Below, one piece after another: positions 3,754 to 61,940 of a DNA stretch of 64,000 bases. The stretch comes from a virus (lineage: Duplodnaviria; Caudoviricetes). Made by a program: the position numbers and the translations under genes. The DNA is taken from the IMG/VR virus record IMGVR_UViG_3300026094_000002; one strand, given 5' to 3'. The notes under the pieces were generated by a model, which ran no database searches, had not been told where the DNA came from, and saw only the letters and a list, made by a program, of their open reading frames with translations. Numbering within the stretch: the stretch's first letter is position 1; each line of letters starts with the position of its first letter.

Positions 3754-4667
3754 AAACTTGTTAATTCACATAAGGTTGCAGATAGATTTATTTCAGGGTC
3801 AGCGACGAGTGTATGATTTACTAACCCATCTCTAATAATAAGAATTGCTTGGTCTTGTTTTTCTTGATTACTGCCCCACAGGTCTAAATTATCATACATC
3901 CATCTAAAAATTTCATCCATTTCATCTGCACGAACACTACTGCATAGTAAATTTCTGGCCTCTAAAATCTTTCCCTCTTTAAAAAGATCAACAACTGCTA
4001 AGCGATAATCTTGGCTGCTTCCTTCATCGCCAGATGGTTTTGATAATTTATTATCTGTGGTATTCATTTGACATGTGTTTAGACATTTGCGTAAATCTGG
4101 GTATGTGGCCTTCACATATGTGTCTAATGTTTCAAGGTTAAAATCTACTCCTTCTTCCACAAGAACAGTAGCCACCCTTGCAGTAAATTCTGTCATATCA
4201 ATACGATCAATATGAAATCCCTGACAACGACTATGCAATGCAGGAATAATCTTGTTAGGGTAGTTACATGTTAGTATAAATCGGGCTGATGCATGATATG
4301 TCTCCATAACACCACGCAGTGCCGCTTGTCCGTTTGGAGAAATATAGTCTGCTTCGTCCAATAAAATTACCTTGAAATCACCAAATGGCATTGTCTCAGC
4401 AAAAGAAGTAATTTTTTCCCTAATAGTATCAACAGAGTTTTCGCGGCTGGCATTAATTTCTAATATGTCAAACTCATCAACGCTTAACTCATTAACAAGA
4501 ACTCTAGCCAGCGTGGTCTTACCAACACCGGGAGAACCAGAAAACAATAGATGTGGTATTGAATTAGAATCTACCCACTCTTTAACTTGCTTTTTTTGGT
4601 CTTCATCCCGAAAGACATAGTCATCTACTGTTTTGGGGCGATAAGATTCTACCCAAAGACTCTGCAT
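3750..4667 (-). CDS. sliding-clamp loader (RFC small subunit / gp44-like AAA+)
   Basis: WVESYRP, GSPGVGKTT, INAS, DEAD, CNYPNKII, SRC motifs. Confidence 0.92.
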   Translation of the reverse strand: MQSLWVESYRPKTVDDYVFRDEDQKKQVKEWVDSNSIPHLLFSGSPGVGKTTLARVLVNELSVDEFDILEINASRENSVDTIREKITSFAETMPFGDFKVILLDEADYISPNGQAALRGVMETYHASARFILTCNYPNKIIPALHSRCQGFHIDRIDMTEFTARVATVLVEEGVDFNLETLDTYVKATYPDLRKCLNTCQMNTTDNKLSKPSGDEGSSQDYRLAVVDLFKEGKILEARNLLCSSVRADEMDEIFRWMYDNLDLWGSNQEKQDQAILIIRDGLVNHTLVADPEINLSATLCELTSL

Positions 4668-54170: not shown

Positions 54171-54411
54171 CAGAAGCGGTGAACGAGTAATGAACAAAAA
54201 CAAAAGACATATGCTGATTAACCGTATCAGTGATCCAGCATAAACAATGCACAAATCACAATTTACAAACTGCTTATTTCCAAAGAACAATTTACAAAAT
54301 CAAATAATCACTTTGGAACACTGCAGAAAGTCACGTCATCAACGCGTTCTCTGTTAAAAAATAGTAAGAAAAAACTTACTGGGGTTCATCCTCACTTTTC
54401 AACCGCTTCTG
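54171..54411 (-). ncRNA. candidate ~240-nt multibranch structured RNA
   Basis: Closing stem CAGAAGCGGTTGAA/TTCACCGCTTCTG extended by GAGGATGAAC/GTTCATTACTC; internal hairpins AGTAAG/CTTACT, CAGAGAA/TTTCTG, TTCCAAAG/CTTTGGAA, TATGCTG/CAGCATA; no ORF. Confidence 0.7.
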
Positions 54412-54442
54412 GATGGTTTACCACTCAAAACAGGCTTAACCA

Positions 54443-55021
54443 TCAAAAATCGGAAATCATACCTAAACGAGCAAGAAGTTTTTCTTCATCTTCATCTAAC
54501 TCAATTTCAGTGTCAATGTTAGCAGCAAGAATCATTTCCTGTACTTCCTGCTTGGTACGTTTAAGGTTGGCAAGTTCTAAGCGATATTTGTCAATATCAT
54601 TATCAGTCAGAACGCCTGTGCTAATAGAAACACCACCAAAGCCACCATAATGGCTTGCTTCAGTAGATTCCTGACGCTTTTTAAGACGACCGTTCAAAAC
54701 AGTAGTTTTATCTTGTGGTCGGGCATTTGCAAACTGCGTGTAAAGTTGAATTTGCTTGTCAATCATTGCTGCATCTGCGAGGAGGTCAGAAATACCTTCA
54801 TCTGCATTTGCTCGTGCAACCTTCTTGCGAATATCAAGCATAACGCCAGTTAGTTTATCCCATGTTTTCAAGTGACCATCAAGATTGCTCTTGGCTGTCT
54901 TAACTTGGTCTTCTGCCCACTCATATTCATTAAGTGAAATTTCGGTAGAAAAATCTAAACGATTCATTTCTTCACGAATCTGTGTTTGAATAGCGTGTGC
55001 TTTGCGTAGATTAATTTTCAT
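54443..55021 (-). CDS. 192-aa coiled-coil protein, distantly DIP1984-like
   Basis: Start reassigned to MKINLRKAH because the track's N-terminus lies inside the tRNA-like RNA; helical heptads, C-terminal I.AANIDTEIEL. Confidence 0.7.
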   Translation of the reverse strand: MKINLRKAHAIQTQIREEMNRLDFSTEISLNEYEWAEDQVKTAKSNLDGHLKTWDKLTGVMLDIRKKVARANADEGISDLLADAAMIDKQIQLYTQFANARPQDKTTVLNGRLKKRQESTEASHYGGFGGVSISTGVLTDNDIDKYRLELANLKRTKQEVQEMILAANIDTEIELDEDEEKLLARLGMISDF

Positions 55022-55040: not shown

Positions 55041-55126
55041 TGGCACCCCCTGAAGGAATTGAACCTTGCACCTTCCACCCAACATTAAGGAAGCGGTTTA
55101 GAAGACCGCTGTCGGGAACAGGGGGT
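55041..55126 (-). ncRNA. tRNA-like RNA lacking a D-arm (anticodon loop CUUCUAA, UCU)
   Basis: Acceptor ACCCCCT/AGGGGGT-G-CCA, GCGGT/ACCGC anticodon stem, GGTTCAATTCC T-loop; only 9 nt where the D-arm should be. Confidence 0.75.
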
Positions 55127-55144
55127 AATGATTTAATATTTAAA

Positions 55145-55591
55145 CTAAGTGTCTTCTTCGCCTTTGTCTATAACAAAAGGTGCTCGAATTAGAATCTGTT
55201 CCATATCCACTTCCCAATCATGCTCACCACCAAAGATCCACTCCAAACCTGTAAGACCATCAGCGTCTTCTGTTTCACGAGTGCATAACTGTTCAATATA
55301 ATCTCGTTCTTCGGAATCAAATTCGCCATGGAATTCTACGGATACTGCGATAAGGTCGTCCAGTTCTGCTCCCCATCCATGTTGAGGGTCGCACACTGCT
55401 ACTTCTTCTTCCTCAACCCAATCCATGTCTTCTTCGGGAACAAATCCCTGACCCCAGCGGTAAGTCTCTGTGACATCAAACCCACGCACATTACCTTCAG
55501 GTGTTTTCTGAAACATCTCAACCAAATAATCCACTGATTTCTTTTCAAGTGGATGAATTCGTACTACGGGTTCTTCGGTTTCTTCAATCAC
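55145..55591 (-). CDS. acidic hypothetical protein
   Basis: 148 aa ORF, GTG start. Confidence 0.55.
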   Translation of the reverse strand: MIEETEEPVVRIHPLEKKSVDYLVEMFQKTPEGNVRGFDVTETYRWGQGFVPEEDMDWVEEEEVAVCDPQHGWGAELDDLIAVSVEFHGEFDSEERDYIEQLCTRETEDADGLTGLEWIFGGEHDWEVDMEQILIRAPFVIDKGEEDT

Positions 55592-55628
55592 AAATTTTTC
55601 CTATTTTTTTACTTTTAAAACCATTGAG

Positions 55629-55738
55629 AAGATGACTGACAGGGTGGAGTTGAACCACCGAGCGGAGCTACCTTTTTATCACCGGCCACCGGGTGCACGG
55701 GAATCGAACCCGGCTACTCCCATTTCAGCAGTCATCTT
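55629..55738 (-). ncRNA. 110-nt tRNA-mimic RNA with two T-loops (YrlA-like topology)
   Basis: 10-bp closing stem AAGATGACTG/CAGTCATCTT; CGGG-TTCGATT-CCCG and GGTGG-TTCAACT-CCACC arms. Confidence 0.7.
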
Positions 55739-55754
55739 GTCAATGATAACAATG

Positions 55755-55849
55755 TTTTAGAATAGAGACTGTTCGGTTTTTCCCTCTAAAGGTAAACTTC
55801 CTCCACCGAAAGGAACACCCTGCAGAGTGTTTCAGTCTCTATACTAAAA
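55755..55849. ncRNA. candidate 95-nt closed-stem RNA
   Basis: TTTTAG.ATAGAGACTG/CAGTCTCTAT.CTAAAA with internal AACAC/GTGTT and TTCGGT/ACCGAA arms. Confidence 0.55.
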
Positions 55850-55867
55850 AATTGCATTGATGACACC

Positions 55868-56015
55868 ATAACAATACACACTCATTTTTATTGCCCGATA
55901 GCCTAGGATTTGGCAGGGTCTGTATAGTGCAGTCGGGAAGCCACTCCCGATGGTTCTAGTACATTTACCGTTCATGTCTTGTACACTGAACGCAACCCTG
56001 AGTGTGTATCGTTAT
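55868..56015. ncRNA. candidate 148-nt closed-stem RNA
   Basis: 17-bp ATAACGATACACACTCA/TGAGTGTGTATTGTTAT stem; internal CAGGGT/ACCCTG and TCGGGAG/TTCCCGA arms. Confidence 0.6.
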
Positions 56016-56038
56016 ATTGTCTCCATATTTTTTTTAAA

Positions 56039-56116
56039 TGGTGGGACCACTCAGATTTGAACTGAGACTCACGCGTCTTATGAGGACGGGGTTTTAACCA
56101 ATTAAACTATGGTCCC
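56039..56116 (-). tRNA. tRNA anticodon CAT (Ile2 or elongator Met)
   Basis: GGGACCA/TGGTCCC-A-CCA, CGTC-CTCATAA-GACG, CTCAG-TTCAAAT-CTGAG; lacks initiator features. Confidence 0.9.
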
Positions 56117-56931
56117 AAAAACTTATGTTCATTCAATAGTTGCATTATACTATAATCATACAAATTGTCAACTACTTTTTTATCAATAACTACAAGATTT
56201 GCTGTTAATTGATTCCACTTTGCCCGATCTTGTTCTGTTTCAAATCCTTTTACTTCCAAATAAGAATCATACTCTGGCAAATAAAAATCTGGAAAATAAC
56301 GCCGTTCTTTGCCCTCAAAAATGTAGGGATAAGAACAATGTTCATATTGCCACTCTATTTTATTAAAGTCTAGCCACTCTGCGGTCTTAACTTCCCAATT
56401 ACCTTTTAAGAGAATTCCCCTGTATTCAATTTGTTTAACTCTACCAATAATGTTATTCACCGAATATGATTCAGGATAATCTTCAACGGCTTTCAACATA
56501 GATTTAGAATGATTAGACTTTTGTTCAGTCGTCCATACTCTTTTTTTACTCGCCTCTGATATTTTTTTTCTAGTTTCTTCGGAGACGACAGGCTTTGGCT
56601 GATTTAATCTTTCTGCTTTTAGAAACTGATTAGAACCTTTTCCCTCCTTACCTAACATTCCATATGAAGGTTTAACTTTTATTTTGTCGGGGTTTTCTTT
56701 ACACCGTATTTCATGCTGACGCAAAGATACTTTTGTTTTATAAAGTTTACCACAATATTGACAATTGGCATTTATTACTGGATTGTTATTTTTTCTTGAT
56801 GCATAACGATTTTTACTCTCAATGCCTTTTGAAACCTTTCTTACCAAACTATATGATACTCCTAAAATTTCTGGAATATCTTTTTTGAGGTAGCCTTGAT
56901 TTACTAACTTTATTATTTTTTGATGGATCAT
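56107..56931 (-). mobile_element. free-standing homing endonuclease-like gene (HTH + Cys/His finger + PD-(D/E)xK)
   Basis: CQYC..H...C, NUMOD3-like VSEETRKKISEA, WE......LD...I.W.YE, YFPDFYLP...YLEVKG. Confidence 0.75.
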
Positions 56932-61130: not shown

Positions 61131-61940
61131 TTATCCTACGAATGCACGTTCAAGAACAAATGAACAGGGAGTTTTTCTGCCACCTTGTACCCAGTTCTTG
61201 CTTTTTAGGATGTCACGAATTTCTACATTAAAATCCATGTTTCCACAAAGCATGACTTTATCTGTGTCTGGTGCAGCGTCAGTCATTAATATGCCTTTCC
61301 TAATCAAATCAGTAATACGCTGCGTAAATCCACCCCATGTACCATCTTGAGTGACAACAGGAATATAATCTACACCTGCATCTTTTAGAAATTCATCATA
61401 TGCCGCAAGTTCATCAGCGGTTCTCACACTCCAAACAAGGTGAAGATTTTCATACTTTTCCTTGGTAGCGGCGTCTCGTAGCAAACTAATAAATGGGGCA
61501 ATACCAGTGCCTGTTGCCAGCATCCAAAGGTCTTTACCATCGCTTAGATTATCAAGGATTAAACTGCCCGTTGGCTGGTTACTGACATAAACGGTATCTC
61601 CAACTACAATGTTCTGCAACTTACTAGTAAGAGGACCATCTGGAACCTTGATACTATAGAATTCTAAGTAATCGTCACTAGGACTTGAAGTAATACTATA
61701 TGCACGTTTAGGAGCGTCATCAATACTAATCATAGTAAAGTCGCCAGCAGTAAATTCAAAGTTGTCTGGCTTTGTCACTCTAAACCGAAAAAGATTATCA
61801 GTATAATGTTCTACTTCGGTTACAGTCATCAGTCCCTGTTCTTCTGCCAGAAACCGCTGATACTCAACCTGATATTCTTCTTCTGAGAGGTTGTGCCAAC
61901 CTCTACAACCGTCTGGTGATCTGCCACATCCACATGTCAT
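61131..61940 (-). CDS. fpr: ferredoxin-NADP+ reductase with N-terminal CDGSH-like Cys/His domain
   Basis: RAYSI, GPLTSKL, ATGTGIAPF.S, MLCGN, ERAF; N-terminal CGCGRSPDGCRGWH. Confidence 0.88.
   Translation of the reverse strand: MTCGCGRSPDGCRGWHNLSEEEYQVEYQRFLAEEQGLMTVTEVEHYTDNLFRFRVTKPDNFEFTAGDFTMISIDDAPKRAYSITSSPSDDYLEFYSIKVPDGPLTSKLQNIVVGDTVYVSNQPTGSLILDNLSDGKDLWMLATGTGIAPFISLLRDAATKEKYENLHLVWSVRTADELAAYDEFLKDAGVDYIPVVTQDGTWGGFTQRITDLIRKGILMTDAAPDTDKVMLCGNMDFNVEIRDILKSKNWVQGGRKTPCSFVLERAFVG

Follow-up and report, generated by a model that had tools for sequence, protein, structure and literature searches.

Outside mitochondria, transfer RNAs (tRNAs) that decode are, to our knowledge, all assumed to form a cloverleaf. 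The L-shape can also be reached by another chain order or through pseudoknots, as in the circularly permuted tRNA genes of red algae and archaea and in the tRNA-like domains of transfer-messenger RNA (tmRNA), Y RNA (YrlA) and plant-virus tRNA-like structures; permuted genes mature to a normal cloverleaf, and the mimics either belong to larger RNAs or have no anticodon for decoding. By comparison, the tRNA-Arg(UCU) gene analyzed here, found in a 64,000-nucleotide (nt) stretch of DNA (hereafter, the window) from the IMG/VR virus record IMGVR_UViG_3300026094_000002 (Duplodnaviria; Caudoviricetes), has normal ends, a re-threaded interior and an intact anticodon. It is an arginine-type gene of 86 nt including the encoded CCA, on the minus strand from 55126 to 55041, and its host record is a 194.5-kb phage with a GC content of 36.7% and an estimated completeness of ~56%. 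The original prediction of a tRNA-like element with an encoded CCA, the loop CUUCUAA, a T-loop and no D arm correctly described what is present there.

Canonical tRNA-Arg(UCU) (RF00005; for example, the gene in the same slot of the close relative L001 and that of phage T5) shares with the rewired gene a 12-bp acceptor plus T branch, CCA, the anticodon loop, the T-loop, GG-A20, the genomic slot and a place in tRNA operons. The rewired gene, in contrast, has no 5' D hairpin: the D-stem strands flank the anticodon arm, the D-loop lies 3' of that arm, the fold is pseudoknotted, the branch is 8/4 (8-bp acceptor stem, 4-bp T stem) rather than 7/5, and the score is below the RF00005 cut-off. Allo-tRNAs, (8/4) tRNA-Ser and tRNA-His, and tRNA-Sec (Mukai et al. 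2017, PMC5389517; RF01852) likewise have an 8/4 branch, a 5-6 bp D-stem with a minimal loop and a 6-bp anticodon stem, occur in phages and Acidobacteria and include some AGA/AGG anticodons; these, however, fold as cloverleaves that have both a D hairpin and a long variable stem, and their identity is Ser, Ala or Cys, whereas the rewired genes divide the D helix between the two sides of the anticodon arm, lack a long variable stem and carry the identity elements of Arg, Tyr or Ile tRNAs. The D-armless mitochondrial tRNA-Ser, treated in a 2020 review of non-canonical tRNAs (PMC7609411), likewise decodes with a short connector where the D arm would be, but there the arm is lost and the connector unpaired in an organellar setting, whereas here the arm is present in pieces, with its GG and a covarying helix, and would serve bacterial translation.

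Exact patterns taken from the window sequence had no match in IMG/VR, and degenerate architecture patterns were therefore used, followed by a structural parser and hand curation, which removed canonical tRNAs (mostly Glu) with a matching D-loop and 16 parser false positives. All IMG/VR family counts and fractions given below are among the matches listed, and the family totals are lower bounds. The family comprises at least 161 distinct phage sequences and at least 31 matches in bacterial genome contigs. Subtype A, to which the window gene belongs (90 of the at least 161), has a linker of 9-10 nt in the D-arm position, a length of 84-92 nt and, in 81 members, the 8/4 branch; subtype B (71 members) has a linker of 7-8 nt, a length of 77-86 nt and a 7/5 branch throughout. 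CCA is encoded in 152 of the 161 members listed. When the anticodon was left free in the patterns, the same fold was recovered with UCU, CCU, ACG and CCG (Arg), UAU (Ile), GUA (Tyr), one CAU and one CUU (Lys). An odd UAU tRNA-like gene (L013:12674-12757, minus strand) fits neither subtype and was left out of the counts.

Homologues found by blastn include Nitrincola phage 1M3-16, whose copy shows a C-G to U-A change in the helix that replaces the D-stem, and Aeromonas phage AhSzw-1, with CCU and UCU copies in tandem. Similar sequences in named records come from Felix O1-like, T5-like, T4-like, Vibrio, Acinetobacter, Klebsiella and Streptomyces phages, where they are mostly unannotated or labelled tRNA-OTHER; culturable carriers include the Felix O1-like phage wV8 and the Klebsiella and Aeromonas T5-like phages. 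Some phages carry two or three rewired tRNAs (L042:660-750, 2889-2968 and 3991-4082; L207:2107-2349; L004:1399-1577), in some cases arranged in tandem and representing both subtypes (UCU, ACG, GUA; UCU, CCU, CCG). The bacterial matches, from a scan of GTDB genomes, are all of subtype A; 25 of the at least 31 lie inside tRNA arrays, mainly in Pyrinomonadaceae and Verrucomicrobiales. In these contigs (L258-L288), rewired tRNA-Arg(UCU) genes stand within large tRNA arrays of Acidobacteria (Pyrinomonadaceae), Verrucomicrobiales and Hydrogenophaga.

The linker in the window gene cannot form a D hairpin (positions 8-17 of the RNA, 0.0 kcal/mol). Instead, strand 11-16 pairs with GUUGGG (44-49) in the minimum free energy fold, with pair probabilities of 0.98-1.0, as had been predicted for the 5' linker and the 3' variable region; the alternative TTCC/GGAA pairing proposed alongside it clashes with this helix and is absent among the covarying pairs. 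The folding energy of the 86-nt gene is unremarkable (z = -1.74), and support for the replacement helix comes from covariation. In a 51-sequence alignment, all 6 pairs covary, 90.2% of cells are paired, and double changes number 69, compared to 21.4 with shuffled and 8-17 with slid partners. By mutual information computed without reference to structure, the pairs of this helix rank among those of the acceptor and anticodon stems, with up to four Watson-Crick types. The low z and the rejection by both ARAGORN and Rfam might point to chance folding or to a pseudogene left by tRNA decay; this explanation, whose probability is negligible, is refuted by compensatory changes in every helix, the replacement stem included, among at least 161 distinct homologues. 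Moreover, the identity of the window gene to rewired members elsewhere is 79-85%, compared to only about one half to the canonical gene in its closest relative.

A third helix, P3, overlooked in the original prediction, joins the linker after the anticodon stem to the bases after GGA, in the window through C37-G56, C38-G55 and U39-A54. Its best column is paired in 75 of 76 sequences, double changes are 23 compared to 7.5, and its mean length is 2.89 bp compared to 1.98 bp with shuffled partners. The strands of P3 interleave with those of the replacement helix, which makes the fold a pseudoknot. The acceptor stem is perfect and ends in CCA, as first described, except that it comprises 8 bp rather than 7, with G8-C75 as the additional pair and a T stem of 4 bp. 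A 7/5 branch was rejected for the window gene, given that in 81 of the 90 subtype-A members the 8th acceptor pair is present and the 5th T-stem pair absent; among non-redundant subtype-A members, the 8th pair is formed in 67 of 76, by several pair types.

The relocated segment of subtype B can be recognised as a full D-loop, with U8 in 55 of 55 and A14 in 54 of 55 sequences and a covarying 15:48 pair (A-U 50, G-C 2, U-A 1, G-G 2). These features suggest that the 5' strand of the D-stem and the D-loop were moved behind the anticodon arm, reconnecting neighbours in the tRNA core. Because half of the D-arm lies 3' of the anticodon arm and pairs back, no textbook cloverleaf can be drawn. The T5 canonical tRNA-Arg(UCU) (L247:14774-14848) and the rewired subtype-B gene L054:6714-6795 share the first 9 nt and 29 of the last 30 nt, suggesting that swapping the inner segment converts either topology into the other; no synteny could be demonstrated between the T5 gene and a rewired one in a T5-like Klebsiella phage.

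Table 1 Features of the rewired tRNA gene and its surroundings (window coordinates). In the RNA numbering, U9 and U10 follow the acceptor strand, 36-43 is the linker after the anticodon stem and 54-59 precedes the T stem.
Feature	Coordinates	Strand	RNA positions	Evidence	Probable counterpart or role
Rewired (strand-swapped, pseudoknotted) tRNA-Arg(UCU) gene	55041..55126	-		Sequence, folding, covariation	
Acceptor 5' strand, 8 nt (8/4 branch)	55119..55126	-	1-8, paired with 75-82	Pairs with 55045-55052	
Replacement D-stem 5' strand CCCGAC	55111..55116	-	11-16	Covariation at 6/6 pairs	Counterpart of canonical 22-25, continuous with anticodon stem
Anticodon arm: 5-6 bp stem, loop CUUCUAA, UCU at 55102-55100, A37 A38	55092..55110	-	Stem 17-22:30-35	Sequence and covariation	
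Pseudoknot helix P3 5' strand CCU	55088..55090	-		Covaries with 55071-55073; unstable alone in nearest-neighbour folding	
Replacement D-stem 3' strand GUUGGG	55078..55083	-	44-49	Homologues and covariation	Counterpart of canonical 10-13, moved behind anticodon arm
Relocated D-loop remnant U-G18-G19-A20	55074..55077	-	U50 G51 G52 A53	Base after GG tracks Arg anticodons	Elbow contact and arginyl-tRNA synthetase (ArgRS) determinant
P3 3' strand AGG	55071..55073	-		Covariation	
T arm: 4-bp stem, T-loop UUCAAUU	55053..55067	-	Stem 60-63:71-74	Sequence, family alignment	
Acceptor 3' strand, discriminator G (55044) and CCA (55043-55041)	55041..55052	-	75-82, G83, CCA	Sequence	
192-aa coiled-coil ORF, PHROG 25230 (unknown function)	54443..55021	-		Downstream neighbour	
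Sigma-70-type promoter, 12/12 match	56144..56171	-		Upstream of tRNA-Met; consensus match only	Start of the transcript

As anticipated, tRNA finders score the gene poorly: ARAGORN did not call it, producing noise on the window at a relaxed score, and it has no Rfam match at the gathering score, so that no normal cloverleaf scores well by either method. Across the family, ARAGORN recognised 2 of 197 copies. When compared with the RF00005 model, the gene has no D hairpin between the acceptor and anticodon arms, but it has the 12-bp acceptor plus T branch (8 + 4 bp) with discriminator G73 and encoded CCA, a 7-nt anticodon loop with U33, a purine at 37 and a 5-bp stem, and the T-loop consensus. 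GG stands at constant spacing before the T arm across the family, a regularity partly imposed by the search patterns. The best sub-threshold Rfam match is tRNA-Sec (RF01852; 34.6 bits compared to a cut-off of 47), with the D region unaligned; membership was rejected, as tRNA-Sec requires UCA and a 13-bp branch, whereas the window gene has UCU and 12 bp. The 8/4 branch agrees with the 8/4 or 9/3 branch of allo-tRNAs and (8/4) tRNAs, but the gene has neither a D hairpin with tetraloop nor a long variable arm, and its variable region pairs with the 5' linker; membership of the allo-tRNAs was rejected. A D-armless tRNA of the mitochondrial type was likewise rejected, the linker being paired with covariation and the GG-A kept, as was a tmRNA fragment. 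None of the T5 stable RNAs (RNA I, III, IV, 1, 2, 3) rises above the ordinary tRNA background in the family model or passes the parser. The topology was not found described in the literature searched, a search whose scope left out most older and subscription literature, including Russian work on T5 tRNAs; a keyword search of the 2020 review (PMC7609411) returned no phage, pseudoknot or permuted forms. It is a real, conserved topological variant of tRNA, apparently undescribed in that literature.

The UGG noted 3' of the anticodon arm, for which contact with the T-loop had been proposed, corresponds to the relocated D-loop: G18 and G19, probably docking on the T-loop, are followed by A20. Immediately after the relocated GG, an A stands in 125 of 126 Arg members (UCU, CCU, ACG, CCG) and in 3 of 35 Tyr, Ile and other members. 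Because one search pattern forced GGA, the comparison was repeated on unbiased patterns and loci. With patterns fixing neither the anticodon nor this base, A was present in 92 of 93 Arg members and 1 of 30 others, and among new loci clustered at 80%, in 17 of 17 and 2 of 20, respectively; the association also holds within each subtype. A20 is the main determinant for bacterial ArgRS, along with C35, U/G36 and a relaxed base 73 (PMC9976931). The window gene has the features of this class (discriminator A, G or U73) through the A after the relocated GG, the UCU anticodon and G73, and the relocated A probably occupies position 20 in space. A73 is invariant among the 35 non-Arg members (Tyr, Ile, one CAU, one Lys), base 73 varies in Arg members, and G1-C72 is present in each of the 16 Tyr members; in UCU members, position 73 is A in 29, G in 43, U in 34 and C in 3.

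These data bear on a working D-armless tRNA with a long variable arm, of the mitochondrial tRNA-Ser or allo-tRNA type and perhaps serylated, which would misread AGA as Ser. The tRNA-Sec match points that way, as do the 8/4 branch and G73, both common to allo-tRNAs, some of which carry AGA/AGG anticodons (PMC5389517). However, the 5' linker covaries with the supposed variable region, the replacement-helix model beats the long-variable-arm model by 6.6 kcal/mol, there is no long variable stem for SerRS, and base 73 of UCU members is not fixed at G whereas A20 is fixed. We regard this explanation as quite improbable.

Rewired and canonical UCU genes occur together in none of 56 phage clusters, whereas a canonical UCU gene is present in 17 of 64 other clusters. 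For Tyr, the corresponding numbers are 0 of 14 and 42 of 106; the single co-occurrence of a rewired and a canonical gene involves Ile. No canonical UCU gene was found beside the rewired gene in 25 bacterial arrays or in five complete or near-complete phages with a rewired gene. The phage record of the window contains six canonical tRNAs, none of them for Arg, and AGA is the commonest Arg codon of the phage (38.5% of Arg codons); no ArgRS gene was found in this record. A tRNA mimic that is charged or bound without translating, a decoy soaking up or inhibiting anticodon nucleases or tRNA-sensing defences, would account for the unusual fold, for the distribution in phages and possibly mobile arrays and for the concentration on Arg, Tyr and Ile, some of which are nuclease targets. 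Colicin D, for instance, cleaves tRNA-Arg, and the effector of retron Eco7 cleaves tRNA-Tyr. Charged, non-translating irregular tRNAs have precedent (PMC5389517). However, a decoy could stand beside the canonical gene, whereas rewired and canonical UCU genes do not co-occur; the rewired gene fills the sole gap in near-complete tRNA arrays and occupies a canonical slot; and it has lost none of the 12-bp branch, CCA, T-loop, A37/A38 or synthetase determinants. Hence, a decoy, also raised in the original prediction together with a processing signal, is unlikely: with identity elements for the synthetases that go with the anticodon, and with the canonical isoacceptor replaced by this gene, both are less likely than a working tRNA. 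The non-canonical tRNA listed first there is supported by covarying helices and by identity elements that follow the anticodon.

Given the helices and their order, the 8/4 branch, the conservation, the identity elements tracking the anticodon and the replacement of the canonical isoacceptor, we estimate at roughly three in four the probability that the gene encodes a charged, translating phage elongator tRNA-Arg with a re-threaded core, which would read AGA and probably also AGG. The chain would run from the acceptor 5' strand through one D-stem strand, the anticodon arm, the linker, the other D-stem strand, GG-A and P3 to the T arm, with the canonical joins 9-10, 21-22 and 45-46 exchanged for ~9-22, 45-10 and 21-46. 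The canonical positions at the exchanged joins are neighbours in the L-shaped tRNA core. Transcribed from the upstream promoter as part of a polycistronic RNA and excised by host RNases, the molecule would adopt the L-shape with the relocated G18/G19 docked on the T-loop, be charged by host ArgRS through the relocated A20 and C35/U36, and be delivered by EF-Tu, supplying AGA decoding to an AT-rich genome. The (8/4) tRNAs are reportedly functional in Escherichia coli translation, which is in line with a translating tRNA.

Several observations weigh against a translating tRNA-Arg. P3 is just 2-4 bp long and has zero probability in single-sequence folding, where the T stem has a probability of 0.12-0.18, so that the fold would depend on tertiary contacts. 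In subtype A, the D-loop remnant comprises 1-2 nt before GG, and the U8-A14 and 15-48 contacts cannot be mapped there. The Fisher counts on identity are inflated by relatedness, with few independent contrasts, though these agree. At ~56% completeness, a canonical tRNA-Arg may be present elsewhere in the phage. According to the allo-tRNA study (PMC5389517), charging of irregular tRNAs with good identity elements is in some cases not followed by use in translation.

We lean, with less assurance, towards the broader proposition that these genes represent a ribosome-active, non-cloverleaf, pseudoknotted topological isomer of tRNA, present in many unrelated phages and arrays for Arg, Ile and Tyr, charged by unmodified host synthetases and possibly nuclease-resistant. 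Evasion of host defences that cleave tRNAs, as the reason why the rewiring persists, is speculative. If the proposition is true, host synthetases, EF-Tu and ribosomes need the three-dimensional shape rather than the chain path, and the fold would provide tRNA engineering with a new scaffold. Inventories of phage tRNAs compiled with ARAGORN or tRNAscan would systematically omit Arg, Ile and Tyr genes, with consequences for work on codon supply and on how phages counter anticodon nucleases.

The rewired tRNA ends 19 nt ahead of the ATG of the coiled-coil gene. From the promoter onwards, the order is tRNA-Met, three stem-closed RNAs, an acidic ORF, the rewired tRNA and the coiled-coil gene. The promoter at 56171-56144, a perfect consensus match, is likely to start the transcript that carries the rewired tRNA, and no minus-strand terminator-like site was found between it and the coiled-coil gene; co-transcription with that gene, as originally proposed, is likely. 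A specific linkage to that gene was not supported, as none of the ten closest coiled-coil loci has a rewired RNA upstream: all ten have canonical tRNA-Arg, -Leu or -Ser, the more distant relatives having Leu or Ser, which marks the position as a site for tRNAs and not as one half of a partnership. In the closest relatives, which are colinear on both flanks (84% and 78% DNA identity), the slot is occupied by canonical tRNA-Arg(UCU). Conversely, rewired-tRNA loci have no coiled-coil gene, apart from one locus with a distant homologue kilobases away, and a dedicated coiled-coil partner was accordingly rejected. The blastn matches to Vibrio KVP40-like phages are confined to 41 nt where the coiled-coil gene begins, too little to be informative. 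A processing signal, or the RNA part of a downstream coiled-coil protein-RNA unit, would fit the short distance and the probable shared transcript, and any tRNA there would create a cleavage site. Nevertheless, with ordinary tRNAs at the ten homologous loci, family members elsewhere not adjacent to the gene and anticodon-matched identity elements that a signal would not need, we consider this role very improbable.

The RNA at 55619-55752 (minus strand) is stem-closed, with two T-arm-like hairpins and no anticodon arm (z = -3.5); in the corresponding interval of the relative L001, a different RNA bearing several T-loops lies at 1620-1790. Two further stem-closed structured RNAs occupy the minus strand in the interval from tRNA-Met to the acidic ORF, at 55755-55852 (z = -4.4) and at 55862-56021, the latter conserved in L001 (78%); neither has an Rfam match. 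Directly upstream of the rewired tRNA, a very acidic 148-aa ORF (55145-55591, minus strand) has no Pfam or PHROG match and is absent from the same L001 interval; it and the rewired tRNA may have arrived together. An endonuclease gene directly upstream of the tRNA unit (56107-56931, minus strand; PHROG 15137, E 2.7e-32) overlaps, with its 3' end, the promoter and the first bases of tRNA-Met, and is possibly a homing endonuclease that aids swaps of tRNA-region cassettes. After the coiled-coil gene, a non-coding segment with complementary ends (54171-54440, minus strand) belongs to a block that is 84-87% identical in relatives. Further away, a gene for an FAD/NAD-binding oxidoreductase (61131-61940, minus strand) lies between tRNA-Lys and tRNA-Gln.
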